Positions 3,431 through 23,433 of a DNA stretch of 29,206 nucleotides are shown piece after piece. Within the stretch, counting starts at the first letter, position 1. The number at the start of each line of letters is the position of its first letter. The notes below the pieces were generated by a model that had not been told where the DNA came from, searched no databases, and worked only from the letters and a program-made list of their open reading frames with translations. The DNA lies in NCBI RefSeq assembly GCF_026626585.1, contig NZ_JAPNKD010000014.1:1-29206 (forward strand), read 5' to 3'. Source of the DNA: Nannocystis sp. ILAH1. Its GTDB lineage: Bacteria; Myxococcota_A; Polyangia; Nannocystales; Nannocystaceae. The position numbers and the translations under genes were made by a program.

Positions 3431-3564
3431 GGACCTGGCCGATGGGGCAGGTTCTGGCCACGGAGCCGTTCGCGCGTCCGCCCGGGCGGCCGGACCTGGC
3501 CGGTGGGACAGGTCCGGCCCGCGGTGGCGGTCGCGCGGGCGGACCTGGTCTGTGGGACAGGTCA
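3431..3564. repeat. Three direct copies (3431-3454, 3492-3515, 3541-3564) of GGACCTGG-N8-GGGACAGGTCC, each an inverted repeat GGACCTG-N10-CAGGTCC giving a 6-7 bp hairpin; the array starts on the stop codon of gene 3562-4428
   Basis: Read directly. The third copy overlaps the stop triplet at 3562-3564. A 14-bp perfect palindrome GGTCCGGCCGGACC precedes copy 1 at 3422-3435. Candidate U-less intrinsic terminators, REP-like stabilisers or operator array upstream of the small acidic gene. Confidence 0.6.
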
Positions 3565-4428
3565 GACGGGGCAGCCGGGCTCGCCCATGTCGCAGCAGAG
3601 GCAGACGGAGGTGCCCATGTCGTCGCCGCAGAAGCCGTGGTCGTACAGGGCCATCATGGCGTCGCCGACCTCGGTACACTGGACGAAGCAGTCGAACTGC
3701 GACAGCTTGCCGTAGATGCAGGTGTTGAGGTTGGTGTCGTCCTCGCAGCTGGCGGGGTCGCTGTTCTCGCAGGCGGTGCCGGGGCCGTCGCCGCAGATGA
3801 ACTCGACGGTCTTGCCGGTGTCGACGCAGCCGTAGGCGAAGTCGTAGCCGTCGAAGCTGCAGCTGTCCTTGGCGAGGTTGGGCTCGAGCACCCAGGTGGC
3901 GCCGTCGCAGCGGTAGACCTGGCTGCCCTCGGGGCCGCAGGCCTCGGTCATCGTGCACCAGAACTGGCCGTTCTGGCAGTTCTCGGGCGGCGGCTGCTCG
4001 CCCTGGCACTCGACGCCGCCGGTGGTGGTGCCCTCGCTGGTGTCAGTGGTCTCGGTGGTGCTCGCGGTCGCCTCGGTGGTGGTCGTGGTCGAGCTGGTCT
4101 CCGGCAGCGTGGTCGACTCGGTGGTCGGGCCGGTGGTGGTGGTCGGCTCGCTGGTCGAGGTCGGCTCGACGGTGGTGGTGCCGACGCTCGAGACCGTGGT
4201 GGTGTCCTCGACCGGACAGCAGGACAGGTCGTTCGGGTCGTCGGTGCAGTACTCGAAGCCGTCGTTGCAGTAGCAGGTCTCGCCGTCGAGGTACGAGTTG
4301 GGGTCGTCGCACACGAACTCGCCGGTGTCGGAGTCGGAGGTGTTCGTGGTGTTGCCGCCGCCGATGATGCAGGCCGACGCGAGCCCCAGGAGGGCCAGGA
4401 GCGCGATTTTGCGAGGTAAGCGAGCCAT
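3562..4428 (-). CDS. Cys-rich putative lipoprotein (288 aa): signal peptide with lipobox-like LASAC, Thr-rich linker, two Cys-rich modules; no recognisable domain
   Basis: ATG start, high GC3, N-terminal MARLPRKIALLALLGLASAC. Only 32 nt separate it from the upstream gene 4461-5669. A T6 run lies immediately 5' of the ATG. Confidence 0.8.
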   Translation of the reverse strand: MARLPRKIALLALLGLASACIIGGGNTTNTSDSDTGEFVCDDPNSYLDGETCYCNDGFEYCTDDPNDLSCCPVEDTTTVSSVGTTTVEPTSTSEPTTTTGPTTESTTLPETSSTTTTTEATASTTETTDTSEGTTTGGVECQGEQPPPENCQNGQFWCTMTEACGPEGSQVYRCDGATWVLEPNLAKDSCSFDGYDFAYGCVDTGKTVEFICGDGPGTACENSDPASCEDDTNLNTCIYGKLSQFDCFVQCTEVGDAMMALYDHGFCGDDMGTSVCLCCDMGEPGCPV

Positions 4429-4460: not shown

Positions 4461-5669
4461 TCAGGGCAATTTATCGCCCGTGTCGCACAGGAAGCGGAAG
4501 CTGTAGCCGCCCGGCTGGGGCAGGGCCTTGTAGCTCTTCACGCTGCCGTCCTGGTTCCACTGGTAGAGCATCGAACAGCCCTCGCACGCCCCGAGCTCGT
4601 CGGGCTCGCCGCTGCCGACGGCGACGTCGCTGACGAACCACGCCTGGTCGTCGCCGGCGCGCCACTCGGGACAGTCGAGCCCGTTGAGCGGCGCGTCGAC
4701 GCAGCTCTCGCCCGCGGTGACTGGATAGATCCCCAAAATCTGCAGGTAATCGGCGCCGCTCTTCACCGTGCCGCCCCCGACCGGCTCGAGATTGTCGCCG
4801 GTGGCGACCTCGTAGGCGACGCCGAGGTGCGCCGGGCTGCGCGGGACGAACAGCTGCATGCCCCAGTCGGCGCAGGCGGCCTCGGCGGTGGCGGCGGTGG
4901 CCGGGTTGGGGTTCATGCCGCCGGCGACGTCGACCTTGAGGAAGGTGTAACCGCCGCCGTCGACGGCCGGATCGAGGGCGCACCAGACGTCGATCGGGTC
5001 CATGATGCCTTCGCGGCGGACGCTGAAGACGCCGCTGACGGCCTCGGGGGTGGCCTCCAGCCACTCGAGGCAGCTGTGGGCGTACCGGCAGGTGGGCAGG
5101 CAGTCGGGGCCGTCCTCGCAGTCCTCGTTCTCGGGATCGACCTGGCCGTCGCCGCAGCCGGGGGCGGCGGCGCTGCAGTCGGCGAGGCAGCTGCCGTAGG
5201 TGCCGTCGTTGGTGCCGTCGTCGCAGACCTCGTCGCCGTTGAGGACGCCGTCACCGCAGGCGGGCAGGAGGCAGGCGGTGGTACAGGCGCCGTCGTCGGC
5301 GTTGTCGGGGCCGAGGTCGCACTCCTCGGCGTCCTTGGCGACGAGGCCGTCACCGCACGTGGCGTTGCGACAGTCGGAGGTGCAGGCGCCGTCGTCGGCG
5401 TTGTCGGGGCCGAGGTCGCACTGCTCGTCGGCGTCGACGAAGCCGTCGCCGCACACGGGCTCGGCGGTGGTGGCGGGCTCGCTCGTGGTCGGTTCGCCCG
5501 TGGTCGGGTCGCTCGGGGAGACGCCGGTGGTGTCGACGGCGGTGGTGGTGCCCGGGCCGGTGGCGGTCGACTCGGTCTCGGTGTTGGCGTTGGGGTCGAG
5601 GCAGGCCTGCAGGGCCAGGGCCGTGACGCTCAGTTGCAGCGAGATCCGGAGACGCGGCGCGGTGGGCAT
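4461..5669 (-). CDS. Putative lipoprotein (402 aa): signal peptide/lipobox (ALALQAC), Thr-rich linker, 4-5 Myxococcus cysteine-rich repeats (CGDGxV..EECDxG), C-terminal ~200-aa globular domain (possibly C-type-lectin-like)
   Basis: ATG at 5667-5669 and high GC3. Repeats read directly (CGDGFVDADEQCDLGPDNADDGACTSDCRNAT; CGDGLVAKDAEECDLGPDNADDGACTTACLLPA; CGDGVLNGDEVCDDGTNDGTYGSCLADCSAAAPG; CGDGQVDPENEDCEDGPDCLPTC). The C-terminal segment AEAACADWGMQLFVPRSPAHL is CTLD-like, from memory only. Confidence 0.85.
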   Translation of the reverse strand: MPTAPRLRISLQLSVTALALQACLDPNANTETESTATGPGTTTAVDTTGVSPSDPTTGEPTTSEPATTAEPVCGDGFVDADEQCDLGPDNADDGACTSDCRNATCGDGLVAKDAEECDLGPDNADDGACTTACLLPACGDGVLNGDEVCDDGTNDGTYGSCLADCSAAAPGCGDGQVDPENEDCEDGPDCLPTCRYAHSCLEWLEATPEAVSGVFSVRREGIMDPIDVWCALDPAVDGGGYTFLKVDVAGGMNPNPATAATAEAACADWGMQLFVPRSPAHLGVAYEVATGDNLEPVGGGTVKSGADYLQILGIYPVTAGESCVDAPLNGLDCPEWRAGDDQAWFVSDVAVGSGEPDELGACEGCSMLYQWNQDGSVKSYKALPQPGGYSFRFLCDTGDKLP

Positions 5670-5814: not shown

Positions 5815-8800
5815 TCAGCGCGACTTGACCTCGAAGCCGAGGGCGCGGCGGGCCCCGACGTAGGCGGGGCTGACTGCGAAGACCAGGAGGTCGCGCAGGT
5901 CGGCGTCGAAGGCCGCGCGGGCCTTGAGGGCGGCGCTGCGTTCGCCTGGCTCTTGGGGCAGGCCGAGGATGTCGAGGGCGGCGCCGAGGTTGCGCGACAG
6001 GCACAGGCCGACGCGGTCGCCGGAGCGCTGGACCCATGCGCGCCAGTCGCGGCTGTCGAAGCCCTCCTGCTCGCGCTCCTTGAAGCCGGTGCTGAGCTGG
6101 CGGGCCAGGCGGATCGGCAGCTTGCGCGCGAGGGTCTGGCCGAGCCGCGTGGCCAGGTCGGCCTCGTCGCGGGCGCGCACGCGCCGGGTGTGGCGCGGGT
6201 GGAAGGCCTGCAGGGCGGCCGCGAGGACGCCGGCGAACAGCGGCTTCGGCAGGCCGGAGACGAGGATCGCGGCGGGGCGGGTGAAGAACATCGCGCGCCC
6301 GAGGGCGAAGCGCAGCCGCGGGGCGGTGGTCTCGGCGCGGGCGGCCGGGCCGACGAGGATCACCGGCGGGTGCACGCACGAGACGCTGGTCCAGCCGCCC
6401 TCGACGCGCATGTCGGGGAGCAGCTCGACGTCGGCGAGGCGCACGCCCTGGGCCGGCATCTGCGTGCCGAGCTCGGTCCAGACCTTCCACAGGAGGGTGT
6501 CCTTGTCGGTCTCGGCCTCGATCCAGGCGGCCTCGCTGAACTGCGGGCGCGGCAGCTCTTCGGCGAGCAGCTCGGCGGCGCCCTCCCACAGCGCGGTGAG
6601 AGCCGGGACGACGCCGGCGTCGGCGGGGGCCGGGTCGATGACCGTGGCGGGGTCGAGCTTGCCGCTGCGCACCGACAGCAGCTCGTGGCTGGTGAGGAAG
6701 GCGCCGGCCTCGGCGTGGCCGGGGCTGACGATCCGCAAGAGCTGGTGGATGGCGTGGGCGCGGCCCTCCTCGCCGTTCTCGGCGCAGTGGCGGGCGAGCG
6801 CGGCCAGGCTGGCCTCGTCGAGCGGGTCGAGGTGGAGCAGGGCGTCGGAGTTGCTGCGCACCTGCGGGCCCTGGATCTTCTCGTCGGCGTAGAGCCGGGC
6901 GAGCTGGCGCCGCGGGGCCAGGCCGAGGCCGGTCGGGTCGAGCTCGGCGGCCCGCTCGAGCAGCCGGATCGCCTGCGCGGGTCGGCTGTCCTTCGGGTCA
7001 GGCGAGGGCTCGGCCTGGACCACGAGGTCGGCCAGGCGGACCAGCAGGCGCTGGCGATCGCGGGCCTCGCGTGGGTCACCAGGCGGCTTCTGGACGCTGT
7101 CCTTGGCCAGGTAGGCGCGCACCGCCGGCTCGATCTCGTCGACGGCGCCGGCGGCCCGCAGGGCGTCGACGAGGCCGTGGATCGGGGCGGCGGCGTCGGG
7201 CAGCAGCTCGACCGCGGCGCGGGCGTAGCCGAGCGCGCGCTCGGGGTCGCCGGGTTCGCCGCGCTGGAGGGCGATCTTGACGCCCTCGAGCAGGAAGCCG
7301 GCCCGCTTGGCGTCGCGCAGGTCGGGGTGGTGCAGCAGGCGGTCGAGGCAGCCGAGGGCGATGCCGGCGTTGCGCGAGACGGCGGTCCAGAAGGCGGCCT
7401 CGAGCTGGCGGCGGTCGAGGACCGGGTGCGGGATGTGCTGGATCAGGGCGAGGCCGGCCTGGACGGCGTCGAAGGCGGCGCCGAGGATCTTCTGCGCGGA
7501 GACGCTGACGACGGTCTCCTCGCCGGTCTCGGCGGCGGCCCCTGCGGCCTCGTGGAACAGCATGCCGGCGGCGAGCAGGGCCCGGCCGCGGGCCTCGGGG
7601 TCCTGCTCGAGGTCGGCGAGGGCGAGGGTGTGCTCGGCGGCGTCGACCAGCCTGCCTGACTCTTGGGCCAGCTGGGCCAGGGCCGCGCGGGCCTTGCGGT
7701 GGCGCGGGGCCAGCTCGAGGGCGCGGGCGTAGCGAGCGGCGAGGCGCTCGGCGGGGGCGTTCTGCTTGGCGTCGCACTCGGCGGCGAGGATCAGCAGGTC
7801 GGCGACCACGGGGGCGCGCTCGGGCGGGACCGGGGTGCCGGCGGCGAGGCGCTGCTCGACCGGCTCGAGCGCGGCGACTGCGTCGCGGTGGCGGCCGGCG
7901 GCGGCGCGGTTGTGGGCCATGGCGGCGCGGATCTCGAGGTCGTCGGGGACGTGGCGCAGGGCCATCGAGAGGCGGCGGTAGGCCTCGTTGGCGCGGTCTG
8001 TCTGTTCGAACAGGTGCGCCAGCATCAGCAGGCCCTCGACCAGGCGCGGCTGATCGCGGGTGAGGCCGAACGCCTCGACCGCGGCCTCGAGGATGGCCTC
8101 GGCCTCGGCGTGCAGGCCGGCGTCGATGAGGGCCGCGCCGAGGGCCAGGCGCGCGGGCGCGTAGTCGGGGTCGGCGGCGAGGGCGGCCTCGAAGCGCTGG
8201 CGGGCGCGCGCGAGCTCCTGGCCGCCGCGCAGCAGGGCGCGGCCGCTCTCGGTGAGGATCCGGGCGCGGATCTCGGGGTCGTCGATCTGGGCCAGCTGGG
8301 CGTCGAGCAGGGCGTCGGCGCCGTCGAGGTCGCCGGCGGCCAGGCGCAGGCCGACCAGGCCCTCGATCGCCTGCGACAGCCGGCGGCTGCGCTGCGGGGC
8401 GCCGGGGGCCAGCTCGGCGAGGACGCGGGTGAACAGCTGGGCAGCCAGCTCGGGCTCGCGCAGGCGGTCGCGGGCGATCGCGGCGGCCTCGAGGATGCCG
8501 TCGGGCTCGGCGACGGCGGCGAGGCTGACGGTGAGGGCCCGGTCGTCGCCGAGGGTCCGCGCGAGGGCGACGCGGCGCTGCTGCAGGCCGAGCGCGGCCT
8601 CCGGCGGGGCGGCGGCGAGCGCCTCGTCGAGGGTCTCGAGCGCGCCGCGGGGGTCACCTGCCTCTTCGGCCAGGGCGGTCGCCAGGGCCTCGGCGATGCG
8701 CACGCGGCGGGCCGCCAGCGCCGGCGAGACCGGCTCGGGGATGTCGAACGGCAGCGGCTCCTCGTCGAGCGGCTCGGCGCGGACCTCCATGTCGCTGACG

Positions 8801-11800
8801 ATCTCGGCCAGGCGCCGGCGCAGCATCTCGACGCCGTCGTCCATGCGCCCGCCCTTGCGGTAGAGGCGGGACAGGCCGAGCACGACGTCGTCGTTCTCGG
8901 GGGCCTCGGCGGCGAGGGTCTCGAGGGTCCCTTGCGCGGCGGCCTCGTCGCCCTGGCCCTCTTGCAGGGCGCGGGCCTTGACGACGAGGAGGGCGATGCG
9001 GGCGTCGCGGTCGCCGGGCGCGACCTGGGTCAGGCGGCGGTCGAGGATCGGCAGCAGCTTGGCGTACTGCTCGGTGCGCAGGTAGAGGCTCTGCAGGCGC
9101 ACCAGGGCGTCGGGGTCGCCGGGGTTGTGGTCGAGGACCTCGGACCAGCCGGCGATCGCGGCGGCCGGCTGGCCGAGGCGCTCCTCGGTGAGGGTGGCGG
9201 CGCGGGCCAGGCAGCGCACGCGCGCGTCGGGGTTGGGCACGACCTCGGCGGCGGAGCGCAGGGCCTCGACGGCGCGGACCCACAGGCCCTCGCGCTGGAG
9301 GATCTCGATCAGCTCGGCGTGGACGTCGGCGGTCTCGGGGGTCTCCTTGACCAGCGCCTCGAGGCGGCGGATGGCCTCGAGCGAGCGGTCGGCGCGGTAG
9401 GCGAGGTCGCGCGCGAGCTGCAGGACGCGGGGGATCCGCTCGTCCAGCGGGAGGCCGTCGGCCTCGACGTCGTAGAGGCGCGCCGAGGCCTCGGCGGCCT
9501 CGCGCTCGCGGCCGGTCTTGGCGTGCAGCGCGGCCAGGCTGCGCAGCGCGCCCAGGTGCTTCGCCGAGACGGCGAGCACGCCGCGGTACTGCTCCTCGGC
9601 GCGCTCGGGCTGACCTGTCTGTTCGTACAGGTCGGCGAGGCGCAGGTGATAGGCGACGATGTGCTCGGGCAGGGTGAGGTCGGACAGCAGGCGCGACAGC
9701 GCGGCGATCAGGCGCTCCGGGTCGGCTGTCCTTTCGGCCATGTGGACGAGGCCCGAGAGCGCGACCGCGTCGTCGGGCACCAGCGCGAGGGCCTCCTCGT
9801 AGCGCTCGAGCGCGGCGTCGGGCATGCCGGCGCCCTCGTCCCACAGGCGAGCGAGCAGGCGCTGCAGGCCGGCGCGCTCGGACTTGCTGGCGGGGACGAC
9901 CGAGGCGTAGGCGTGGGCCAGCTCGTGCCAGGCGGAGCTGGCGGACGGGCGGCCGGGCAGGACCGGGGCGTCGAGCTCGGGCAGGGCCGGCAGGCCGGCG
10001 GTGACGGCGTCGATCAGCTCGCGGCTGGCGACCGGGGGCGGCGGCGGCAAGCTGGCCGCAGGGACAGGCTCAGGCGGGCGCGAGGGCGGCGGCGGGGCGG
10101 CGGGGCGGCGGGCCGGCGGCGGGGCCTTGGCGACCGGCTTGCCGCCCGGCGGGCGCGGCGGGGTCGGCTTGAGCGGCTTGGCGGCGGGCCGCGGCAGCGA
10201 GCGCTTGTGGGCGACCGGGCGCGGGGCGTCGTCGTCGAGCTCGAGCATCTCGTCGAGGTCGAGCACGCCCGAGACCTCGGCGCTCGGGCGCTTCGGCGCC
10301 GGGCCGACCAGGCTGTCCTCGATCGGCTCGAGGTCGGCGAGGTCGAACACGCCGCTCTCCTGGCGCGGCAGGCCGGCCGCGCGCACGCTGACCGAGCCGG
10401 ACGCCTCGACGGCCTCGAGGTCGGCGATGTCGACGATGTCGGTCTCGCCGCGGGCCGGCCGCGGGGCGCGGATCTTGACCGCGGTGGCCGACAGCTCGAC
10501 GGGCTCGAGGTCGGCGAGGTCGACGATGTTGGTGTGCGTCTCGCTGCGGACGGTCTTGCCCGGGCGGGCGACGACCTCCTTGCCACCGCCGCGCCGCAGC
10601 TCCTCGAGCGGCTCGAGCTCGGACAGCTGGATCTCGGCGGTCGGGCGCGACACCTCCTCGAGGTCGTCGAGCTCCATCACGCTCGACTCCTCTTTCTTGC
10701 GGGCCTTGACGGCCATGCGCGGGGCGAGCGTGTCGGGGTCGAGGCCGAGCTTGCGCCACTGGTCGCGGTCGGCCAGCTCGGGCGGGACGATCTGCGGCCA
10801 CAGCAGCGGGTCGCGGGCCGGCGGCGGGGCGGTGTAGGTGCCGGTCAGGCTGGCGAGGTGCCACATCTTGCTGTGGACGGGCCCGAGCTCACCTGTCTCG
10901 GGGGGCAGGTCGCCCTGCAGCTTCCAGGCGGCGATCCGGGCCCTGAGCGCGTACTCGGGCCGGCCGAGGCAGTTCTCGTAGAGCTCGGCGATCTGGGTCA
11001 GGAGCTTGCCCTGCTGGGCCCTGCCTGTCCCGAAGGCCAGCTCGCTCGCGGGCGCGAGCAGGAGCAGGTGCCACAGGTTGTCGCGCTCGGCCAGGCGGTC
11101 GAGCTCGAAGCGGGCCTCCTCGCTGCCGGGGTGGAGCGAGAGGGCGCGCAGCCACTCGGCGATGGCGCCGGCGGTGTCGCCGAGGCCGGCGCGCAGCTCG
11201 GCGCGGCGCTTGAGCAGCGACAGCTTGAGCGCGGGGTCGACGGTCTGGCCGATGATCTGCTGGGTGACCGACAGCAGGGTGAGCGCGCCGGTCGGCGGGG
11301 TGTCGGGGCTGCGCTTCTCGTCGACCTTGGCGGCCATCGCCTCGATCGCGGGCATCAGCGCGGTGCCGTCGCGGTCGTAGGCGACGCCGAGCCGCAGGGT
11401 GCGCAGGGCCGCGAGCGGGTCCTGGCGCTTCTCGTAGTCGATGCGCGCCGAGTCCTTGAGCTGGTTGAGGCCGCCGCGTTCGTTGCGCTGCAGCTTGGCG
11501 AGCGCGAGGCCGCGGTGGTGATCGGCGAGCTCGGGCCAGAGCTGGTGGCGCTGGGCCAGCTCGGTCATCAGGCCGGCGGCCTCCTCGGCGAGCGAGGGAT
11601 CGGCGGGGCGCAGGTCGGTCTCGGCCCGCCGCAGCCACTGGAACGCGCGCTTGTGATCGTTGAGGTGGCGCTCGTAGATCTTGGCGATGGCGACGCAGGC
11701 GTCGAAGCGGCCGAGGCCGGTCTTGGCGCGGCCGAGCTTGAGCTCCTGCAGGTCGATCAGCGCCTGCCACATCTGGTGGGCCTCGCCGAGGGCCTCGATC

Positions 11801-14800
11801 TGGCGCCCGAGGTCGTCGTCGTCGGGGCGCAGCTTGTAGGCGCGCTGCAGGTAGCCGATCGCGCGCGCGGGGTCGCCGAGGCGCTCGCGCGCGATCTCGG
11901 CGGCCGACATCAACAGGGCGATGGTGCCGTAGTCGCCGTAGTTGGGGGTCTTCTCCTGGAAGGCCAGCTCCTGCTCGCTGACGTCGAGCATCTGCGGCCA
12001 CAGGCCGTGGGCCTGGGCCAGGCCCTCGAGGCGGTCGAGCACGGTGCCGGCGTCGAGGCCGGCGCGCAGGGCCACGAAGTAGGCCTTGCGGGCCCAGGCG
12101 AAGGCGAGGTCGGGGTCGCCGATCTTCTTCTCGGCGGTGGCCGAGGCGCCGAGGCACAGGTCGATCTGGCCGCGGCTCTCCGCGCGGCCGCTCATCTCGG
12201 TGAAGCGCTCGCCGTAGACGACGAGCAGGTCCTTGTACATGCCGTGGCGCTCGGCGAACGCCTCGATCTTCTGCTTGAGGTCGCGGCTGCCGGGGGCGAT
12301 GCCGAGGGCCCGCCCGAGCAGCGCGAGCGCCCGCTTGGCGTGGCCGAGCCCGAACTCGCACACCTCGGCCATCTGCTCGAGGGTGACGACCTGCTGGGCG
12401 GCGTCGGTGAGGCTCTCGAGGCGCTTGCCGAGAGTGTCGAGGGTGGCCTGGTGGTCGCCGGCCAGCGCCTGCAGCTCGCCGAGGATCTTGAGGCCCTCGC
12501 CGTCGTCGGGCTCCTCGCGCATGAACCGCTGGAAGGCGGCGATGGCCTTGTGCGGGGCGTTGAGGTTGACGACGTAGGTGCGGGCGACCAGCGAGAACAG
12601 CTCGCGCCGCTCGTCGGTCTCGAGCGCCGAGAGCAGGAGGATCTCGGCGTGGCGGATCAGGCGGTCGAACTGGCCGGCGCGCTCGTACAGCTCGAGCAGC
12701 TTGAGGGCGACGTCGCGGTTGCCGACGGCGGCGTTCGAGCTGAGCTGCTCGAGCACGCGGATGGCGGCGGCCGGGTTGTCGAGCCGGTCGGCCAGGACCT
12801 CGGCGCGCTCCCAGCCGATGCCGAGCGCCTCCTCGTCGCTGTCGGCCATGTCCTGCAGGGTGCCGAGCGAGGCGGCCAGGCCGTGCCAGCTGCCGAGGTT
12901 GCGGTAGAGGCGGGTCAGCGCCTCGGTGGCGCCGCGGTGGTCGCGGTGGATCCGCAGCGCGCGCTCGAAGGCCGAGCAGGCCAGGTCGGCGTCGCCGAGC
13001 GACGACTCGGCGACGTGGCCCAGGCGCATGAGATAGTCGAGCTGGCGGATCGGCGGGGTGCGGGCCGAGCTGGCGGCCTTGCCGAGCAGGTTGGCGAGCT
13101 CCTCGCGGTTGCCGAGCGCCTCGTAGGCGGCGATCAGCTTGTCGGTGACCTCGAGGTTGTGCGGGTCGCCGGCCTGCAGCTGCGTCCACGCCTGGGCCGA
13201 GCGCTGCGGGTCCTGCAGCTTGCGGTCGGCGACGTCGGCCATGCGCCGGATGATGCGGGTGCGCTGGGCCGGGTCTCCGACGAGGCCGAGCTCGCGCGAC
13301 AGCGCCTCGTACTCGCCGCCGGCGTCGCCGAGCTCGGCGCACAAGCCCTGCATGCGGTGGACCGCGTCCATGTCCGACGGGCTGTAGCCGAGGATCTGCT
13401 CGCAGGCCCACAGCGCCTCGCGCGGGCTGTGCAGCTCGTGCTGCCACAGCTCGGCCATGCGCCGCAGCAGGACCACGCGCTGCGAGATGCTGCGGGTGAC
13501 GTCGTGCTGGCGCCGCAGCAGGTCGATGACCTGGTCGTAGGCACCTGTCCGTTCGTACATCTCGGCGAGCGCGCGCAGGGCCCCCTCGTGGCCGGGCGCG
13601 AGCGCCAGCATCTCCTGCAGCAGGACGATGGTGCGCTGGGGGTCGGTCATGCGCTCGCGGTGGGCCTGCGACAGCCGGCGCAACACCTCGAAGCGGCGCT
13701 GCGGATCGACGGTGCGCTGCAGCTCGGCCTCGAGGGTGGCGAGGTTGGCGTCGAGCATGCGCGCGCGCTTGTCGATGCGGGCGATCTGGTCGCGCGGGCG
13801 CCAGTCGTTGGGGTAGGCGAGGGCGAGCCGGTTCCAGGCGTCGAGGGCGCCGGCGAGGTCGCCGAGGCGGCGCTCGTAGATCTCGGCCAGCTCGACGAAG
13901 TGCTCGGCGAACTCGGAGCGAGCGAGCGGGCTGTCCGGGCCGCCGCCCATCTGCAGGGCCTGGTCGCCCTGGTAGAGGATGAGGCCGGCGAGGTGCGACC
14001 AGTTGTTCTTGCGCCGCCAGTGCTCCTTGTAGCCCTCGAAGGCCTCGTGATTGAAGGGCTCGCGCTCGAGCACGCGGTAGAAGCTGACCGCGGCCCGCTC
14101 CTCGTCGCCGAGGTCCTCGCGGGCGACGCGGGCGGCCCACAGCAGCTTGTCGGTCGGCAGACCGCCGGGGTCCTGCTCGGACCAGCGCTCGTACAGGCTG
14201 ACGAGACCGTGGTTGTCGCCGAGCTCGACCAGCAAGGCCTCGAGGCGCAGCCAGGCGTCGCCGCCGGGCCGCTCGAGCCGCGAGGCCTGCTCGTAGCAGG
14301 CGCGGGCCTCCTCGCGGCGGGCGAGGCGAGTCTCGAGCAGCTCGCCGCGCGACAGCCACAGGCCGTAGCTGTCGGCCTCGGTGACATAGCCGATCCACGC
14401 CCCGTAGAGGTCGTCGAGCTCCATCCACTTCTCCTGCGCCATCAACAGCTCGGCGAGGGCGTTGCCGGCCTCGTGATGGTCGGGACGCAGGCTCATGGCC
14501 CGGCGCAGCAGGCTGTAGGCGATCTTGTCGTCGCCCTGGCTGCGCGCGAGCTTGGCGGCGCGGAAGAACACGTCGGCGGCCTTCTGCAGGCCCTCGTCGC
14601 TGGCCTTGCCGCTGCCGAGGTAGAGGGCGCCGAAGGCCCGCAGGGCGGCGACGTCGTCCGGGTTGGCCTTGAGCGCGGCCTGCAGGTGGAGCGCGGCGGA
14701 GGGGATGTTCTCGAGCTGCTCGGCCTCGATCCGCGCGAGGCGGAGGTGAAGGGCGGCGAAGCGGTCGCGCTCGCGGACGTTGTCGGTGCGCGCGAGCTCG

Positions 14801-15432
14801 GCGTTGATCAGATCGATGACGCGCAGCCAGGCGCCAGCCTGGAGATGAAGCCGGATGAGCTGATCGCTGGCGTCGCGCTCCTGGGGGTTGATCTCGAGCG
14901 CGGCCCTGTAGCAAGCGATGGCCTCGTCGACCTGACAGCGCTGCTCGTCGACCTTGCCGAGCTCGACGAGCGCGCCAGGGACCGCGCCCCGATCGTGCCG
15001 CCGCAGGTGGTCGAGGCGGAACTTGAGCAAGGTGGCAAGCTCGTCGAGGCTGCCGAGCTCGCCGTAGACCTTGCGCAGTTGCTCGTAGGCGCGGCTGTTG
15101 TGCGGCTCGGCCTGGAGGGCGCGCACGAGGGCGTAGGCGGCCTGGGGCTTGTCCTTGACGCGGTCGTACCAGAGCTCGTAGGCCTGGACGCACAGCTCGG
15201 CGACCTTCGGCGGGCCACTGATCGCTGCAGCGTGCACGACGAGCAAGGTGGCGAGGGCGCTCCAGTTCTCGGCCTCGCGGAAGGCCCGTCGCAGCTTCAA
15301 GAAGGCGTCGTCGCTGGGCTTGGCGCGAAACGCCCCGAGCTCGGGCGGCTCTCCATGAGCCACGGGCGGCAGCGGGCAAGGCAGATCGTGAGGCGAGGGC
15401 TGGCGCTTGGGCGCGACGGCGGTTTCGGGCAT
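5815..15432 (-). CDS. Giant cytoplasmic TPR-repeat protein (about 3,200 aa). Two long TPR super-helical regions are separated by an acidic repeat array ([IV]xDLADLEPxE x5-6) and a polyproline segment; ~330-aa C-terminal domain of unknown function
   Basis: Uninterrupted 9.7-kb ORF with high GC3. Dozens of TPR signatures (LAxLYExxGxxxxA..Y). No signal peptide. Start ambiguous between ATG at 15432 (preferred) and TTG at 15516 (track). Resembles the giant TPR proteins of myxobacteria (an AgmK/GltE-like size class), but no motility-gene neighbours are present, so no symbol is assigned. Confidence 0.9.
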   Translation of the reverse strand: MPETAVAPKRQPSPHDLPCPLPPVAHGEPPELGAFRAKPSDDAFLKLRRAFREAENWSALATLLVVHAAAISGPPKVAELCVQAYELWYDRVKDKPQAAYALVRALQAEPHNSRAYEQLRKVYGELGSLDELATLLKFRLDHLRRHDRGAVPGALVELGKVDEQRCQVDEAIACYRAALEINPQERDASDQLIRLHLQAGAWLRVIDLINAELARTDNVRERDRFAALHLRLARIEAEQLENIPSAALHLQAALKANPDDVAALRAFGALYLGSGKASDEGLQKAADVFFRAAKLARSQGDDKIAYSLLRRAMSLRPDHHEAGNALAELLMAQEKWMELDDLYGAWIGYVTEADSYGLWLSRGELLETRLARREEARACYEQASRLERPGGDAWLRLEALLVELGDNHGLVSLYERWSEQDPGGLPTDKLLWAARVAREDLGDEERAAVSFYRVLEREPFNHEAFEGYKEHWRRKNNWSHLAGLILYQGDQALQMGGGPDSPLARSEFAEHFVELAEIYERRLGDLAGALDAWNRLALAYPNDWRPRDQIARIDKRARMLDANLATLEAELQRTVDPQRRFEVLRRLSQAHRERMTDPQRTIVLLQEMLALAPGHEGALRALAEMYERTGAYDQVIDLLRRQHDVTRSISQRVVLLRRMAELWQHELHSPREALWACEQILGYSPSDMDAVHRMQGLCAELGDAGGEYEALSRELGLVGDPAQRTRIIRRMADVADRKLQDPQRSAQAWTQLQAGDPHNLEVTDKLIAAYEALGNREELANLLGKAASSARTPPIRQLDYLMRLGHVAESSLGDADLACSAFERALRIHRDHRGATEALTRLYRNLGSWHGLAASLGTLQDMADSDEEALGIGWERAEVLADRLDNPAAAIRVLEQLSSNAAVGNRDVALKLLELYERAGQFDRLIRHAEILLLSALETDERRELFSLVARTYVVNLNAPHKAIAAFQRFMREEPDDGEGLKILGELQALAGDHQATLDTLGKRLESLTDAAQQVVTLEQMAEVCEFGLGHAKRALALLGRALGIAPGSRDLKQKIEAFAERHGMYKDLLVVYGERFTEMSGRAESRGQIDLCLGASATAEKKIGDPDLAFAWARKAYFVALRAGLDAGTVLDRLEGLAQAHGLWPQMLDVSEQELAFQEKTPNYGDYGTIALLMSAAEIARERLGDPARAIGYLQRAYKLRPDDDDLGRQIEALGEAHQMWQALIDLQELKLGRAKTGLGRFDACVAIAKIYERHLNDHKRAFQWLRRAETDLRPADPSLAEEAAGLMTELAQRHQLWPELADHHRGLALAKLQRNERGGLNQLKDSARIDYEKRQDPLAALRTLRLGVAYDRDGTALMPAIEAMAAKVDEKRSPDTPPTGALTLLSVTQQIIGQTVDPALKLSLLKRRAELRAGLGDTAGAIAEWLRALSLHPGSEEARFELDRLAERDNLWHLLLLAPASELAFGTGRAQQGKLLTQIAELYENCLGRPEYALRARIAAWKLQGDLPPETGELGPVHSKMWHLASLTGTYTAPPPARDPLLWPQIVPPELADRDQWRKLGLDPDTLAPRMAVKARKKEESSVMELDDLEEVSRPTAEIQLSELEPLEELRRGGGKEVVARPGKTVRSETHTNIVDLADLEPVELSATAVKIRAPRPARGETDIVDIADLEAVEASGSVSVRAAGLPRQESGVFDLADLEPIEDSLVGPAPKRPSAEVSGVLDLDEMLELDDDAPRPVAHKRSLPRPAAKPLKPTPPRPPGGKPVAKAPPPARRPAAPPPPSRPPEPVPAASLPPPPPVASRELIDAVTAGLPALPELDAPVLPGRPSASSAWHELAHAYASVVPASKSERAGLQRLLARLWDEGAGMPDAALERYEEALALVPDDAVALSGLVHMAERTADPERLIAALSRLLSDLTLPEHIVAYHLRLADLYEQTGQPERAEEQYRGVLAVSAKHLGALRSLAALHAKTGREREAAEASARLYDVEADGLPLDERIPRVLQLARDLAYRADRSLEAIRRLEALVKETPETADVHAELIEILQREGLWVRAVEALRSAAEVVPNPDARVRCLARAATLTEERLGQPAAAIAGWSEVLDHNPGDPDALVRLQSLYLRTEQYAKLLPILDRRLTQVAPGDRDARIALLVVKARALQEGQGDEAAAQGTLETLAAEAPENDDVVLGLSRLYRKGGRMDDGVEMLRRRLAEIVSDMEVRAEPLDEEPLPFDIPEPVSPALAARRVRIAEALATALAEEAGDPRGALETLDEALAAAPPEAALGLQQRRVALARTLGDDRALTVSLAAVAEPDGILEAAAIARDRLREPELAAQLFTRVLAELAPGAPQRSRRLSQAIEGLVGLRLAAGDLDGADALLDAQLAQIDDPEIRARILTESGRALLRGGQELARARQRFEAALAADPDYAPARLALGAALIDAGLHAEAEAILEAAVEAFGLTRDQPRLVEGLLMLAHLFEQTDRANEAYRRLSMALRHVPDDLEIRAAMAHNRAAAGRHRDAVAALEPVEQRLAAGTPVPPERAPVVADLLILAAECDAKQNAPAERLAARYARALELAPRHRKARAALAQLAQESGRLVDAAEHTLALADLEQDPEARGRALLAAGMLFHEAAGAAAETGEETVVSVSAQKILGAAFDAVQAGLALIQHIPHPVLDRRQLEAAFWTAVSRNAGIALGCLDRLLHHPDLRDAKRAGFLLEGVKIALQRGEPGDPERALGYARAAVELLPDAAAPIHGLVDALRAAGAVDEIEPAVRAYLAKDSVQKPPGDPREARDRQRLLVRLADLVVQAEPSPDPKDSRPAQAIRLLERAAELDPTGLGLAPRRQLARLYADEKIQGPQVRSNSDALLHLDPLDEASLAALARHCAENGEEGRAHAIHQLLRIVSPGHAEAGAFLTSHELLSVRSGKLDPATVIDPAPADAGVVPALTALWEGAAELLAEELPRPQFSEAAWIEAETDKDTLLWKVWTELGTQMPAQGVRLADVELLPDMRVEGGWTSVSCVHPPVILVGPAARAETTAPRLRFALGRAMFFTRPAAILVSGLPKPLFAGVLAAALQAFHPRHTRRVRARDEADLATRLGQTLARKLPIRLARQLSTGFKEREQEGFDSRDWRAWVQRSGDRVGLCLSRNLGAALDILGLPQEPGERSAALKARAAFDADLRDLLVFAVSPAYVGARRALGFEVKSR

Positions 15433-15658
15433 GGGCGTGGGCCGCGAGCGGGGCCGCCCAAGGTACCACGGCCGCCCTGGCGTGTGGTTTGCGGGCGGAC
15501 AGGTGACCGTGGGCAAGATCGCGCGCGTGGCGGGACACGGAGGGTCGGCGATTGGGGGCGGGAGGCCCGATCGTCGGGGCGCTGTCGCGCTCGTGAATGG
15601 GTGAGGGATTCTGCGCGGGGGGCTCGGCGCTCAGCATATTGCCGACTGCGCCTCGCGG

Positions 15659-15760
15659 GGGGTCCGGGGAAGCGGCGGCCGCGAGTTAACCGGCGGGATG
15701 GACACTCGTTCCTCGCGCCCATCTCGCCTCTAATTCGCGGCCGCCGCTTCCCCGGACCCC
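15659..15760. promoter_or_regulatory. Perfect 26-bp inverted repeat (GGGGTCCGGGGAAGCGGCGGCCGCGA ... TCGCGGCCGCCGCTTCCCCGGACCCC) flanking a 50-bp AT-richer spacer (contains TTAACC, CTCTAATT); lies 140-240 bp upstream of the giant TPR gene
   Basis: Arms at 15659-15684 and 15735-15760 are exact reverse complements. The spacer is conspicuously AT-rich for this genome. No convincing target-site duplication, so a MITE is not supported. Candidate large operator or cruciform element in the TPR-operon promoter region. Confidence 0.5.
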
Positions 15761-15835
15761 TGGCACGGCTGCAGCCGTGAGAGGCCCGCACGCCGTCGTG
15801 GGCTTCGATGCAGAGGCTGCCCCGGCGGAGAGCGC

Positions 15836-15928
15836 GAGGCGTCTGTTCGACGGCCAGGGCTGGCCGCCGAACAGACGCCATTTCACGAACCGGGCGGCGT
15901 GCGTCTGTCGGAGACGATTGGTGTGAGG
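15836..15928 (+). repeat. Copy 1 of a duplicated ~95-nt structured element: 19-bp-stem hairpin GCGTCTGTTCGACGGCCAG-GG-CTGGCCGCCGAACAGACGC followed by CATTTCACG.., a second small stem CGTCTGTCGGAGACG, then GTGTGAGG
   Basis: About 85-90% identical over ~95 nt to 16400-16490 in the same orientation. An additional shared GACGATGATG lies 25-35 nt further downstream in both. A sigma-54-like TGGCACG at 15762-15768 lies ~70 nt upstream on the same strand (GG/GC spacing fits only with a poor -12 element). Confidence 0.55.
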
Positions 15929-17743: not shown

Positions 17744-19051
17744 TCAGAAGCGGCCGGTGAGGCTGACGAGGGCGCCGCGCGGGGTGGGGCTCATGCCGGC
17801 GGAGAAGCGGCGGCCGCGATCGTTGCGGTGGAGCAGCGGGACGAGGACGCCGATGGCGGTGCCGGCGACGGAGCCGAACAGGACGTCGGTCCAGAAGTGC
17901 TTGCCGGCCTCGACGCGCAGGACGCCGGTGGTGGCGGCGAGGCCGACTGCGACCAGCCAGGCCGGGACGGCGGCGCGGGCCCGCGGGTGACGCAGGGTGA
18001 AGAGGGTGGCCCAGGCGCTCATCATGGCGAAGGCGGTCGAGGTGTGACCTGAATAAAAGGACAGGCGCGCCTCCTCGGCCTGGACGTCTCCGAGGTCGCT
18101 CTCGGGCTCGTAGCTGTAGGGCCGCGGGCGGCGCACGGCGTACTTGACGAGGTTGTTGAGGCCGACGTTGACGGCGAGGACCTCGAACAGGACGACCACG
18201 TCGCGGGCCCAGCCGCCGGCGGCGTGGCGGTAGGAGCCGGGGGCGCGGCGGCCGGCGACGAGGGTGTCGGCGAGGTCGGCGACGATCGGGGCGGCGATCG
18301 CGGTGTAGAGGAGGGCGTCGGAGGCGTGGGCGGCCGCGAGGCTCTCGTTGCCGAGGACGCGCCGATCGAGGCCGTTGATGTGGCTGCGGTCGCAGGTCTG
18401 ACAGCCGGACCAGCGCATGTCGCGAGCCGCGAGATCGGTGCCGAGCCACATGACGAGGCCGAGGGCGATGACGGGGACGTCGACGGCCGGCCGCAGGCGC
18501 ATGAGGTGCGGCGGGAGGGCCGGCGGCGCGGGCGGGAGCGGGGGATCGGCGGCGGGGGTGGTGGGGACGGGCGGCGGAGATGTCCCGGAGGACATGTCTT
18601 CCGGGGCATTTGGGGAGGGATCGAGCGGGGCGGGGGCGGCTGTCCCGGGGGACATGTCGCCGGGGGCGGCCGGATTGGCTGTCCCCGAGGACGTGTCTTC
18701 GAGGGGCGGGGCGGGCGATGGCGTGACGGCTGTCCGTAGGGCCAGGTTGGCGGGTGGGATCGTGGTCAGGAGGCCTGTCTCTGGGGACAGGTGCGCAGAG
18801 GCGGGCGGCGGGACGGTCGGGGCCGCGGCCAGGGCGGATATCCCTGGGGACAGGTGGGTGGCGGCGGAGGACGGAGCGGCCGCCGACGGGAGGGCCAGCG
18901 AGGGTGTCCTCTCGGGCATGTCATCCGAGACATGTCCCGAGGGCCCGGCGGGCTGCCAGGCGCCCGGGCCGGGGGGGCGCGCCAGCGGGTGGGCGGCCGC
19001 AGGCGGGGCGGCGAGGGCGAGGACCAGGGCCAGGGACAGGCAGCGCGACAT
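17744..19051 (-). CDS. PAP2-family (acid phosphatase / phosphatidic-acid-phosphatase type 2) membrane-associated phosphatase with signal peptide and a ~200-aa Pro/Ser-rich repeat linker
   Basis: All three PAP2 motifs are present in the C-terminal part: KYAVRRPRP (KX6RP), YSGHTS (PSGH), RVEAGKHFWTD (SRX5HX3D). ATG at about 19051 begins MSRCLSLALVLALAAPPAAA. The track's TTG start at 19132 adds 27 non-signal residues. Confidence 0.8.
   Translation of the reverse strand: MSRCLSLALVLALAAPPAAAHPLARPPGPGAWQPAGPSGHVSDDMPERTPSLALPSAAAPSSAATHLSPGISALAAAPTVPPPASAHLSPETGLLTTIPPANLALRTAVTPSPAPPLEDTSSGTANPAAPGDMSPGTAAPAPLDPSPNAPEDMSSGTSPPPVPTTPAADPPLPPAPPALPPHLMRLRPAVDVPVIALGLVMWLGTDLAARDMRWSGCQTCDRSHINGLDRRVLGNESLAAAHASDALLYTAIAAPIVADLADTLVAGRRAPGSYRHAAGGWARDVVVLFEVLAVNVGLNNLVKYAVRRPRPYSYEPESDLGDVQAEEARLSFYSGHTSTAFAMMSAWATLFTLRHPRARAAVPAWLVAVGLAATTGVLRVEAGKHFWTDVLFGSVAGTAIGVLVPLLHRNDRGRRFSAGMSPTPRGALVSLTGRF
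18585..18960. repeat. Intragenic minisatellite-like array: 6-7 imperfect tandem units of about 60-66 nt, each beginning TGTCC(C/G)NGG(A/G)GGACA(T/G)GTC (palindromic GGACATGTCC / GGGGACAGGTG cores), encoding the PEDMSSGT / PGDMSPGT / HLSPE repeats of the PAP2 linker
   Basis: Read directly on both strands. Units at about 18581, 18641, 18686, 18771, 18838 and 18906. Another GGGGACAGGTG is at about 19106. Confidence 0.7.
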
Positions 19052-19195
19052 GCTCGGTCGGACGAGTATGCCCAATCGCGGCCCGGCGGCGCCGAGGGAG
19101 ATGGCTTTGGGGACAGGTGATTGCGGGCTCAAAGGCGCGTCGATCGCGCTGCGCTGGCTGAGGACGGCCGGGTCGGGCTACATTGGCGTCCAGCG

Positions 19196-21901: not shown

Positions 21902-22296
21902 GAAGGCGAGGCTGCGCGCGGCTGCAGGGGGCTTTGGCGCCCGCGCTTTTAATATGGGGCGGGGCGCACCTGCACCGGAGCGAGGTGCTCGAGGGCGCCT
22001 GCGCGCTCTCAGCGAGGGACCGCCTCTCCGTCCGCGGCGGGGGCGCAGATCCCGAAGTCGCCAGCGCTGGTGCCCGCTCGCCTCGGCTCCCTCGAAGATG
22101 TGCGCCCGCGATTCGACCCGCTCGGCCGCGATGCTGGCCGACGCCCGCCGGCCGTCGCTGGCGTGGCTCGCCCCGGCGAGAGCGCACGACACTCCCGTCA
22201 GACCAGGACGCCGGTGGGCTCCAGCCTCGTCGCAGGGGCTTCTCCGACCCGCGCTGCAAACGGCGTCCACGTCGCCTGCACGTCCCCTGGGCGGCT

Positions 22297-22312
22297 TGGC
22301 ACGGCCCCTGCT
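22297..22312 (+). promoter_or_regulatory. Sigma-54 (RpoN) type promoter TGGCACGGCCCCTGCT: -24 GG and -12 GC with exact 10-nt spacing and good flanks (TGGCAC..N..TGCT), ending ~15 nt before the ATG of 22327-23433
   Basis: Matches the consensus TGGCACG-N4-TTGCW at 11 of 12 defined positions. The implied TSS at about 22322 would make the mRNA nearly leaderless. Sigma-54 promoters with EBP activators are abundant in myxobacteria (established knowledge). Confidence 0.45.
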
Positions 22313-22326
22313 AAGGCGACATCCGC

Positions 22327-23433
22327 ATGACGACCACGACCCGCCTCCTCACCTTGTCCTCGCTCTTCCTCGCATTGCCGGCCTGTGATTCGAAGGTCGA
22401 GGGTCACCACGCGAACGACGGCGACTCCACGGCCGGCGAGGCCGACAGCGAGGGCGCCGAAGAAGGCGAGGGCGACAGCGAGGGCGAGATCAAGAGTGAG
22501 GACGAAGGCGAGCCCGAGCCCGAGCCCAAGGCGGACTTCGGCCGTGCGGGCGAGATCTGCGACCAGTCCCAGCTGTCTGGCGAGTGTCAGATCGGCGGCG
22601 TCGCCGGCCTCGAGTTCTGCGTCTGGTCGCTCGATCAGTACAGCCACATCTGGACCGCCTGTCTGACGGAGACGTGCGCCAAGGAGGGCGACTCGCGTGC
22701 CTGTGACGGCGGCACCCAGCACTGCGTCGCTTACGAGGCGACCCCCGACACCGGCGAGACGCGCTGGGGCGAGTGCGGCGAGGCCGACGAGTGCAAGCCG
22801 GGCGACAGCCAGTCGTGCGGCTTCGGCGAGGAAGAATTCGACATCGACATGGGCTGCATGGTCGACGAGGAGACCGGCCGCCACGTGTGGAACTGGGAAG
22901 ACTGCAACACCCCGCTGGTGCTGAGCTTCGGCGACGCCATCGAGTTCGCACCGACCTCCGCCTCGGCGGCCGACTTCGACATCCACGGCGGCGCGGGCAG
23001 CTGCGCCCGCGCCGACTGGCCGACCGCCGCCACCCCGTGGCTCGCGCTCGACCGCGACGGCAACGGCAGCATCGACGGCGGCCAGGAGCTGTTCGGCGCC
23101 GCCACACGCCTGTCCTTCGGGTCAGGTGTGCATAACGGCTTCCAGGCCCTCGCCGAGCTCGACAGCGACCGCGACGGCAAGATCACCGCCGCGGACGCGC
23201 GCTGGGGCGAGCTGATGCTGTGGGCCGACCACGACGCCGACCGTCGCTCGAGCGGGTGGGAGATGCTGCCGCTCGCGAGCTTCGAGATCGTCGAGATCGA
23301 CCTCGGCTTCACCACTCGCCGCGAGTGCGATGCGCGCGGCAACTGCGGCCTCGAGCGCGCCAGCTTCGTCTACCGCACCGCCGGCCAGCAGCGCTCCGGC
23401 GAGGTCGTCGACGTGCGCGTCGCCTGCGAATAA
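22327..23433 (+). CDS. Secreted acidic lipoprotein (368 aa) with Glu/Asp-rich linker, Cys-rich module and two EF-hand-like Ca-binding loops (DRDGNGSIDGGQE; DSDRDGKITAADA)
   Basis: ATG and high GC3. N-terminal MTTTTRLLTLSSLFLALPAC (lipobox-like LPAC). DxDxNG/DxDxDG loops read directly. Confidence 0.8.
   Translation: MTTTTRLLTLSSLFLALPACDSKVEGHHANDGDSTAGEADSEGAEEGEGDSEGEIKSEDEGEPEPEPKADFGRAGEICDQSQLSGECQIGGVAGLEFCVWSLDQYSHIWTACLTETCAKEGDSRACDGGTQHCVAYEATPDTGETRWGECGEADECKPGDSQSCGFGEEEFDIDMGCMVDEETGRHVWNWEDCNTPLVLSFGDAIEFAPTSASAADFDIHGGAGSCARADWPTAATPWLALDRDGNGSIDGGQELFGAATRLSFGSGVHNGFQALAELDSDRDGKITAADARWGELMLWADHDADRRSSGWEMLPLASFEIVEIDLGFTTRRECDARGNCGLERASFVYRTAGQQRSGEVVDVRVACE

Follow-up and report, generated by a model that had tools for sequence, protein, structure and literature searches.

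Clusters of rare codons in a giant tetratricopeptide repeat (TPR) gene of Nannocystis sp. ILAH1 are probably the collateral of a lineage-specific short palindromic element, similar to repetitive extragenic palindromic (REP) sequences, terminators or the HIP1 palindrome, that is kept inside open reading frames (ORFs) by nucleotide-level pressure. The gene lies in a stretch of 29,206 nt with 72% GC, the whole of which was analysed (hereafter the window). All the rare-codon places that an earlier sequence-only reading of this DNA had named, and several more, are imperfect palindromes of 16-18 nt, (C)CTG-N-CC-N4-GG-N-CAG(G), with the ideal form (T)GACCTGTCC-N4-GGACAGGTC(A). This word is a spacing-specific unit, independent of frame and gene, which is enriched over codon-aware nulls and persists among species. 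Its sites are gained and lost as whole units. It is longer-lived than other rare codons and belongs to the same family as the hairpins found at gene ends.

The giant gene and its rare codons

The giant gene occupies a minus-strand ORF of 9.7 kb (5815-15516, from TTG at 15516), and its orthologues place the start at the ATG at 15432 (5815..15432, 3205 aa). Matches to TPR Pfam families show that the protein is all-TPR, and full-length orthologues with 91-98% identity are found in five Nannocystis species. The GC contents of the three codon positions are 0.79/0.48/0.97, giving a GC content at third positions (GC3) of 97% rather than the 90% stated in the sequence-only reading. Only 91 codons of the gene end in A or T.

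That reading had described GAA-(CAG/CGG)-ACA-GGT, encoding E-x-T-G, at eight or more places and listed eight. All of these exist. On the minus strand, which is the coding one, each shows some part of the pattern, but the literal string is present at only two, GAA-CGG-ACA-GGT at 13543-13554 (aa 655, counted as all residues here from the TTG at 15516) and GAA-CAG-ACA-GGT at 9613-9624 (aa 1965). The remaining minus-strand places read GAA CAG ACA GAC (7999-8007, aa 2504), GAA AGG ACA GCC (9727-9735, aa 1928), GAA GAG GCA GGT (8656-8667, aa 2284), CAA GAG TCA GGC (7657-7665, aa 2618), (GAG) ACA GGT (10891-10896, aa 1541) and (GGG) ACA GGC (11026-11028, aa 1497). A ninth place that had not been named, CAA GAG CCA GGC, lies at 5947-5955 on the same strand (aa 3188). 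The 15-mer said to be shared by three copies holds at 7998 and 9615 and has one mismatch at 13545.

Some of the codons ending in A or T follow the pattern SAA-NNG-NCA-GGY. SAA-x-NCA occurs seven times in the gene compared with 0.07 expected (0/5000 synonymous-codon shuffles), six windows of four codons contain at least three rare codons (0.24 expected), and all six ACA codons of the gene fall within the rare-codon set. The sites choose NCA and never NCT, and GGT and never GGA. Elsewhere the turn peptide is also written with common codons, for example TAC GAG CGC GCC GGC at aa 945.

The palindromic word and its enrichment

At every cluster in the giant gene, a CTG codon (ATG twice) lies exactly four codons 5′ of NCA. 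Among the 43 NCA-G sites of all window genes, CTG is found four codons before at 12 and ATG at three, against a CTG background of 4.8%. Of 14 sites with ACA-G in the coding sense, 10 have the CTG upstream. Because CTG or ATG stands at this fixed distance before NCA, the unit is CTG-N10-CAG and not E-x-T-G, as which it had been mis-defined. The minimal form in genes, CTG-N-CC-N4-GG-N-CAG, is enriched in A/T at its centre. The codon layout of the 16-nt word is CTG NNC NNA NNG NCA G, usually extended to CCTG...CAGG and often to GACCTG...CAGGTC.

The window contains 10 strict copies (CCTG-N10-CAGG), compared with 0.74 expected and a maximum of four in dinucleotide shuffles. A scan over the spacing of CCTG-Nk-CAGG showed its only peak at k=10, with 10 sites vs. 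0-2 at other k of the same codon phase, and CTG-N10-CAG is found 29 times vs. about 9. In the coding DNA of the window, CTGNCY-N4-RGNCAG occurs 10 times where a per-gene synonymous shuffle predicts 0.13, a count that none of 1000 shuffles reached; the N7 and N13 spacing controls lie at their own nulls. This ~75-fold enrichment over the codon-shuffled null, together with the orthologues, in which GAA, NCA and GGT are mostly retained at these places, bears out the nucleotide-level constraint on coding sequence that the sequence-only reading had proposed. Both results go against the outcomes that this reading had named as its refutation.

Of the ten strict copies, three are the intergenic hairpins (3434, 3495 and 3544), four belong to the giant gene, two to the PAP2 gene and one to a plus-strand gene, and the relaxed pattern adds 6986, 7656, 10052, 11025 and 18730. 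Overall, the window holds 18-20 copies, 15 of about 18 being genic. The 16-mer CTGTCCTTCGGGTCAG is identical at 6986 and 23110, in different genes on opposite strands. At 6986 and 10052 the word is read in a different frame (CCT G.. ... ..C AGC), which brings in the rare codon CCT. Synonymous choice could write the word at 34 peptide-compatible places in the window genes, of which 10 carry it. The filled places are 10 of 22 in the giant, PAP2 and 22327-23433 genes and 0 of 12 in the other genes (hypergeometric p ~0.005).

Six sites lie at TPR turns of the form [LM]-x-E-x-[TAS]-[GDA], and the remainder fall either within a Pro-rich linker or outside TPR sequence. The turn peptide D-L-x-E-x-T-G appears to be close to the word GAC CTG KCC NNN NGG ACA GGT, and this near-cognacy would explain the pile-up of copies in the giant gene. 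The association with TPR signature positions is then incidental, arising from the likeness of the turn peptide D-L-x-E-x-T/A-G to the word. Unpaired half-sites in the orientation that costs rare codons show no enrichment, indicating that the pair is the unit.

Other sources of the pattern were considered and rejected. Avoidance of internal Shine-Dalgarno-like GAGGAG/CAGGAG does not explain GAA-GAG and CAA-GAG, as the same gene uses GAG-GAG 16 times and CAG-GAG nine times; nor does avoidance of CCGG/RCCGGY explain NCA-GG, as GCC-GGC is used 29 times. Common ancestry of the TPR repeats is at odds with the unrelated flanks and with the word in other frames, other genes and intergenic DNA. A general G-NCA-G codon-context bias is only mild (0.32 vs. 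0.17 in the window genes) and is accounted for by the word itself. The centre and half-sites might have differed by strand or orientation, but the 13:3 bias of the half-sites follows from codon usage, CTG TCC being common codons. An Rfam scan of the window gave no family match, and a literature search on the word or on REPs in myxobacteria found nothing relevant.

Persistence and turnover in relatives

The persistence of the word was analysed in six Nannocystis sequences of the giant gene, with 77 rare third positions counted after the first 50 codons. Motif spans make up 2% of the gene yet contain 20 of the 77. Within the word, 50% of the rare third positions are variable vs. 89.5% elsewhere (Fisher p = 5e-4), and third positions as a whole vary alike inside and outside the motif spans (21% vs. 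24%). Sites 7998 (GAA and ACA) and 7656 (both rare codons) show joint loss in L001 and L002. At site 9726, five codons are altered in L005, four of them with an amino-acid change, to give CTG TCC GAA AAG GCA GGT, a full CCTG-N10-CAGG and a better copy of the word.

More distant orthologues were obtained from metagenomes (L006, L007 and L008 with 82%, 62% and 54% amino-acid identity). Site 9615 retains GAA, ACA and GGT in L008, with the middle codon changed to AGG. At site 11025 the same sequence carries the word with a different peptide, CTG GCC CAA AAG CCA GGT. Two or three of about ten sites are retained at 54-60% amino-acid identity. Other sites are lost, and new ones are found at other positions in L007 and L008, such as CTG CCC GGA AGG ACA GGT. 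In the Sorangium and Archangium loci the word is absent and no N10 peak is seen. As far as sampled, the word appears from these sequences to be restricted to Nannocystis and close relatives, including L007 and L008. Separately, a CTG-N13-CAG excess in Sorangium (11 sites, L009) has no common inner pattern and was thus treated as noise.

Related contigs and gene ends

A metagenome scan for the perfect 22-mer returned at least 120 contigs, with about half of the matches appearing to be chance matches on low-GC contigs. The high-GC contigs among the matches listed contain 45 additional N10 sites vs. about 9 per control spacing. A motif-rich sample of 28 sources (240 kb) contains 126 sites, a number biased by the seeding of the sample with perfect copies. 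The symmetrised half-site of the 126 sites is G-A-C-C-T-G-T-C-C-c, and the centre is nearly free and A/T-enriched. The density of the word in the 28 sources is 0.41/kb in genic vs. 0.99/kb in intergenic DNA, and the genic copies occupy all three frames (42/24/12).

The genes flanking intergenic copies in the relatives are convergent in 19 cases, tandem in 20 and divergent in three, and 25 of 41 copies lie within 51 nt of a gene's 3′ end. Several of the relatives' copies (L063, L097, L122 and L127) have A-run/T-run flanks, as in bidirectional intrinsic terminators. The TGA stop codon repeatedly forms the first three bases of the arm TGACCTGTCC (window 3559-3564, L031 1107-1166, L039 5049-5070 and L054 6408). 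The hairpin thus starts inside the stop codon, and between convergent genes both stops are embedded in elements. One metagenome contig with 80% GC (L126) has ATCGACCTGTCCCTGCGGACAGGTCGGC six times between 404 and 608, at a period of 36-39 nt and within a single long ORF (GC3 0.94). This is either an element array read through as a 12-13-aa repeat or a spurious ORF.

Copies in the window and their surroundings

The array at 3431-3564, which the sequence-only reading had linked to its motif, does belong to the word, containing three strict CCTG-N10-CAGG matches. These are 3434..3451 (CCTGGCCGATGGGGCAGG), 3495..3512 (GGACCTGGCCGGTGGGACAGGTCC, with 9/10 arm pairs) and 3544..3561, where the minus-strand TGA stop of the gene at 3562-4428 supplies the arm's first 3 nt. 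Three hairpins form when the array is folded (z = -4.15), and it has no T run.

The giant gene hosts 11 copies, all on the minus strand. The copy at 5945..5962 (CTG CCC CAA GAG CCA GG, aa 3186-3191) contains rare CAA and CCA, both present in 6/6 Nannocystis sequences, and CAA is retained in L007. At 6985..7002 the copy is written in the other frame as CCT GAC CCG AAG GAC AGC with a rare CCT, its plus strand being the 16-mer identical to that at 23110. The copies at 7655..7672 (CTG GCC CAA GAG TCA GG, rare CAA and TCA) and 7997..8014 (CTG TTC GAA CAG ACA G, that is CTGT-N8-ACAG) are followed by 8657..8674 (CTG GCC GAA GAG GCA GGT), in which GAA and GCA are present in 6/6 Nannocystis sequences. 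The best genic copy, GAC CTG TAC GAA CAG ACA GGT C at 9614..9631, has 7-bp arms (GACCTGT/ACAGGTC). A degenerate copy lies at 9725..9742 (ATG GCC GAA AGG ACA G), and the copy at 10051..10068, in the Pro-rich linker, is written in the second frame as CCT GTC CCT GCG GCC AGC with two rare CCT codons. The copies at 10892..10909 (CTG CCC CCC GAG ACA GGT) and 11024..11041 (CTG GCC TTC GGG ACA GG, with a UUCG centre) precede a second degenerate copy at 13544..13561 (ATG TAC GAA CGG ACA GGT), whose ACA and GGT are present in 6/6 Nannocystis sequences and whose ACA is retained in L006.

The link drawn earlier to the PAP2 gene also stands, with minus-strand copies inside this ORF at 18048..18065 (CTG TCC TTT TAT TCA GGT, peptide LSFYSG), 18729..18746 (CTG GCC CTA CGG ACA G, rare CTA and ACA) and 18774..18791 (C CTG TCC CCA GAG ACA GG, arms CCTGTC/GACAGG). 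The plus-strand gene at 22327-23433, a putative protein with no function assigned, carries CTG TCC TTC GGG TCA GGT at 23109..23126. Two further places had been claimed for the motif. The one in the start codon region of the giant gene is only an unpaired half-site, GGACAGGT, at 15497..15504 on the plus strand, 65 nt 5′ of the ATG; similar unpaired half-sites lie at 4222, 18848 and 19111. The duplicated intergenic element (TCTGTTCGACGG at 15842) is a different hairpin. It is a long one, at 15839-15880 (GCGTCTGTTCGACGGCCAG / CTGGCCGCCGAACAGACGC); two genic copies share TCTGTTCG with it but nothing more, and it seems to be an element of its own.

Other features of the window were also observed. 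The 5′ third of the PAP2 ORF (18785-19118) has many rare codons and includes three TGGGGACAGGTG half-sites that are translated as repeated H-L-S-P peptides. The PAP2 domain begins near aa 313 of this ORF, and the true start codon may lie farther downstream. At 3960-3983, AGAACTGGCCGTTCTGGCAGTTCT is a palindrome with 7-bp arms and CTG-N10-CAG in the third possible frame, written in common codons only (AAC TGC CAG AAC GGC CAG). It is also found in L011 and may be a further copy of the word or chance. Upstream of the giant gene, an inverted repeat of 39 nt at 15650-15769 (87% complementary, 42 nt apart) lies outside the CTG-N10-CAG family. The bulk of the direct-repeat output for the window comes from two DUF4215 proteins (620-2635 and 4461-5669) with Cys-rich repeats of 93-nt period. 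The giant gene is interrupted in two assemblies of N. pusilla (L003 3001-12636 and L011 7626-15071). Its straight translation has 19 stops in L003, and in L011 it is called as three or four ORFs. These could be assembly frameshift errors or real pseudogenisation.

Comparison with known systems

Like REP sequences and bacterial interspersed mosaic elements, the word is a short (about 22 nt), sequence-defined, imperfect palindrome with many repeats and small arrays, found 3′ of genes and between convergent genes and rare in divergent promoter regions. However, many copies lie within ORFs, in each of the three frames, where codon choice rather than insertion has produced them, so that the word is not confined to extragenic DNA. 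It has no conserved 5′ GTAG-type tetranucleotide, and the orientation of arrays is unreadable for so symmetric a word. A search for REP-associated tyrosine transposases (RAYTs) by tblastn with E. coli TnpA-REP (query verified against PDB 4ER8) over 0.9 Mb found nothing, although a search of this size would probably overlook a gene present only once in a genome of 12 Mb. Intrinsic terminators share the GC-rich stem-loop at or right after the stop codon and, in some relatives, the A/T-run flanks. They differ in that the stem sequence of the word is conserved across unrelated genes and organisms, the window array has no T run, and the genic copies have no stable stem or T run.

DNA uptake sequences (DUS) and uptake signal sequences (USS) of Neisseria and Pasteurellaceae are lineage-specific words that form inverted pairs as terminator stems after genes and also lie in ORFs, where they distort codon and peptide usage. 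By analogy, the word may be compared with them as a lineage-specific word paired in gene-end stems and found inside ORFs. However, DUS and USS act as single oriented 9-12-mers, whereas here the pair is the unit, and a half-site in the costly orientation nearly always has its partner. The architecture of the LexA SOS box matches at few sites, and the ORF and 3′ locations and the density of about 0.5/kb separate the word from it. Rare-codon folding clusters share the conserved, clustered rare codons at homologous positions of a repeat protein. What counts here is instead a nucleotide sequence: common codons are part of it, and it recurs in further frames, on both strands and outside coding DNA.

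HIP1 (GCGATCGC) is a highly iterated cyanobacterial palindrome, 15-300-fold over-represented within and between ORFs and conserved at orthologous places; selection has been argued for it, and its function has been unknown for decades (PMC5861425, PMC4390886). The word is likewise an over-represented palindrome inside and between ORFs, and its individual sites are also conserved between genomes, as the lower variability of its rare codons showed. However, HIP1 is a contiguous 8-mer linked to orphan methyltransferases, whereas the word is an interrupted palindrome of 16-22 nt with a free 4-nt centre; it doubles as a gene-end hairpin and, in the sequences sampled, is confined to Nannocystis and close relatives. 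Thus, being neither extragenic as REPs are nor, like HIP1, a contiguous 8-mer with a known methyltransferase link, the word is best regarded as a member of neither family. By analogy, the element would work most like REP or terminator palindromes at gene ends, and its ORF copies most like HIP1. The word is apparently undescribed for Myxococcota.

What keeps the word in coding sequence

Under the preferred reading, a palindromic element kept in ORFs by nucleotide-level pressure, perfect copies lie between genes, typically at or just after the stop codon, singly or in short arrays that fold into hairpins, and in this respect resemble the REP or terminator elements of 3′ ends. Within ORFs, the word is written where the peptide permits, with CTG for Leu, a G-ending codon and the otherwise avoided GAA/CAA, NCA and GGT, or CCT in the second frame. 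A sequence-specific factor may recognise the two CTGKCC half-sites, on duplex DNA or on a stem, and so keep the word; alternatively, conversion drive from the many perfect copies could keep it in ORFs. The genic copies may act as weak binding, pause or termination sites, and ribosome pausing would not be the selected trait. A bolder proposal, which we hold tentatively and regard as somewhat more likely to fail than to stand, is that GACCTGTCC-N4-GGACAGGTC is an undescribed genome-wide palindrome of Nannocystis and close relatives, serving as a gene-end stem and as a selected word in ORFs and read by a dedicated factor.

Several observations weigh against this picture. Most genic copies are poor hairpins, with z from -1.3 to +1.1, no better than shuffles. 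Palindrome positions 4/13 show no covariation (T-A 42 vs. 35.5 expected, G-C 7 vs. 8.4), indicating that the arms are conserved in sequence and not merely in pairing. The sample of related contigs is biased by its seeding. The MFS and histidine-kinase genes (20675-22348 and 24704-29206; GC3 0.85-0.88) carry the word at 0/9 compatible places; they may have arrived later or be subject to another regime. At 55-60% amino-acid identity most sites have no positional conservation, and this turnover fits density-type pressure or neutral drive as well as selection. No binding factor, methylase or RAYT transposase was identified, the last in the tblastn search of 0.9 Mb.

It is rather unlikely, though a serious competitor, that the word reflects molecular drive without function, in which perfect intergenic copies template short-patch gene conversion or templated repair at near-cognate coding sequence. 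Purifying selection on the protein would then pass only synonymous or conservative changes and leave degenerate, continually replenished copies. Drive would fit genic copies that degenerate exactly at non-synonymous positions and are cognate at synonymous ones, several bases that change or revert together, the new positions in L007 and L008 at deeper divergence, the missing hairpin stability of most genic copies, and the lower-GC3 genes, perhaps newer arrivals, that lack the word at nine compatible places. However, the central A (GAA/CAA) is conserved though the consensus centre is nearly free, site 9615 is retained in the 54%-identical orthologue, conversion tracts are not directly seen, and the positional conservation of HIP1 has been read as selection over biased repair (PMC5861425). 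Selection of sense-strand mRNA hairpins in the ORF, for example for RNA polymerase pausing or for 3′-end protection after cleavage of the 9.7-kb transcript, is less likely still. The word is palindromic, its intergenic copies are hairpins at transcript ends, two genic sites fold well (9615, z = -3.7; 23110, z = -4.2), and stable tetraloops occupy some centres (UUCG at 11025 and 23110, GAAA/GGAA in the window and L008). The mRNA hairpins of the sequence-only reading hold for 9606-9639, which contains site 9615, but most other genic sites fold like shuffles. In addition, the sense strand has C·A mismatches at 6/11, the missing covariation at 4/13 speaks against selection on pairing, and the CTG/CAG ends are kept at rare-codon cost although common codons could build stable GC stems. 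The evidence points to two recognised half-sites, a stem of fixed sequence or copying from perfect elements, and not to generic RNA stability.

The operator of a classical regulator such as LexA, or the recognition site of a DNA methyltransferase or restriction system, is improbable. The E. coli LexA box is CTGT-N8-ACAG, which is literally present at 7998, 9615 and 18775, and symmetric half-sites without covariation around an A/T-enriched centre would fit a dimer on duplex DNA. However, an operator would not be expected at a density of about 0.4-1 per kb, with most copies inside ORFs or 3′ of genes and only 3/45 intergenic copies between divergent genes. The spacer of the LexA box published for M. 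xanthus, CTRHAMRYBYGTTCAGS, is also different. To our knowledge, there is no restriction or methylation site with a 10-nt spacer. Restriction sites are, moreover, usually avoided and not enriched (PMC8410138). Least probable of all is the leading idea of the sequence-only reading, in which clusters of rare codons at TPR helix turns would slow ribosomes and so aid folding during translation. The clusters are indeed far denser than expected, six sites lie at turns of TPR-like repeats, and the clusters are conserved among orthologues. However, the idea is contradicted by the identical 16-mer at 6986 and 23110, once in another frame of the giant gene and once in a different gene on the opposite strand. 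In addition, the word is found in intergenic arrays, in the Pro-rich linker (10052) and outside TPR proteins, common codons (CTG, NNG) are required at fixed distances, NCA is always chosen over NCT and GGT over GGA, and identical turn peptides elsewhere use common codons. Of the mechanisms suggested earlier, an RNA or DNA hairpin and a DNA-binding palindrome remain live.

Significance

A conserved rare-codon pattern in a repeat protein can be the footprint of a dispersed DNA or RNA word and not a translation signal, which bears on the codon-based inference of folding pauses and on the recoding of myxobacterial genes for expression. Should a dedicated factor read the word, this putative factor could act in chromosome structuring, self-marking, or transcription termination or pausing. 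Myxobacteria would then have their own equivalent of HIP1 or DUS, powerful enough to prevail over the 97% GC3 bias and even to direct amino-acid replacements (site 9726 in L005). The word may also mark native as opposed to acquired genes, the two lower-GC3 genes of the window being without it. If genome-wide, it would open a new way to study the 3′ ends of transcripts and the organisation of the nucleoid in the very large, 72% GC genomes of myxobacteria, and would offer a second independent system, beside HIP1, for asking why bacterial lineages maintain a hyper-abundant palindrome.

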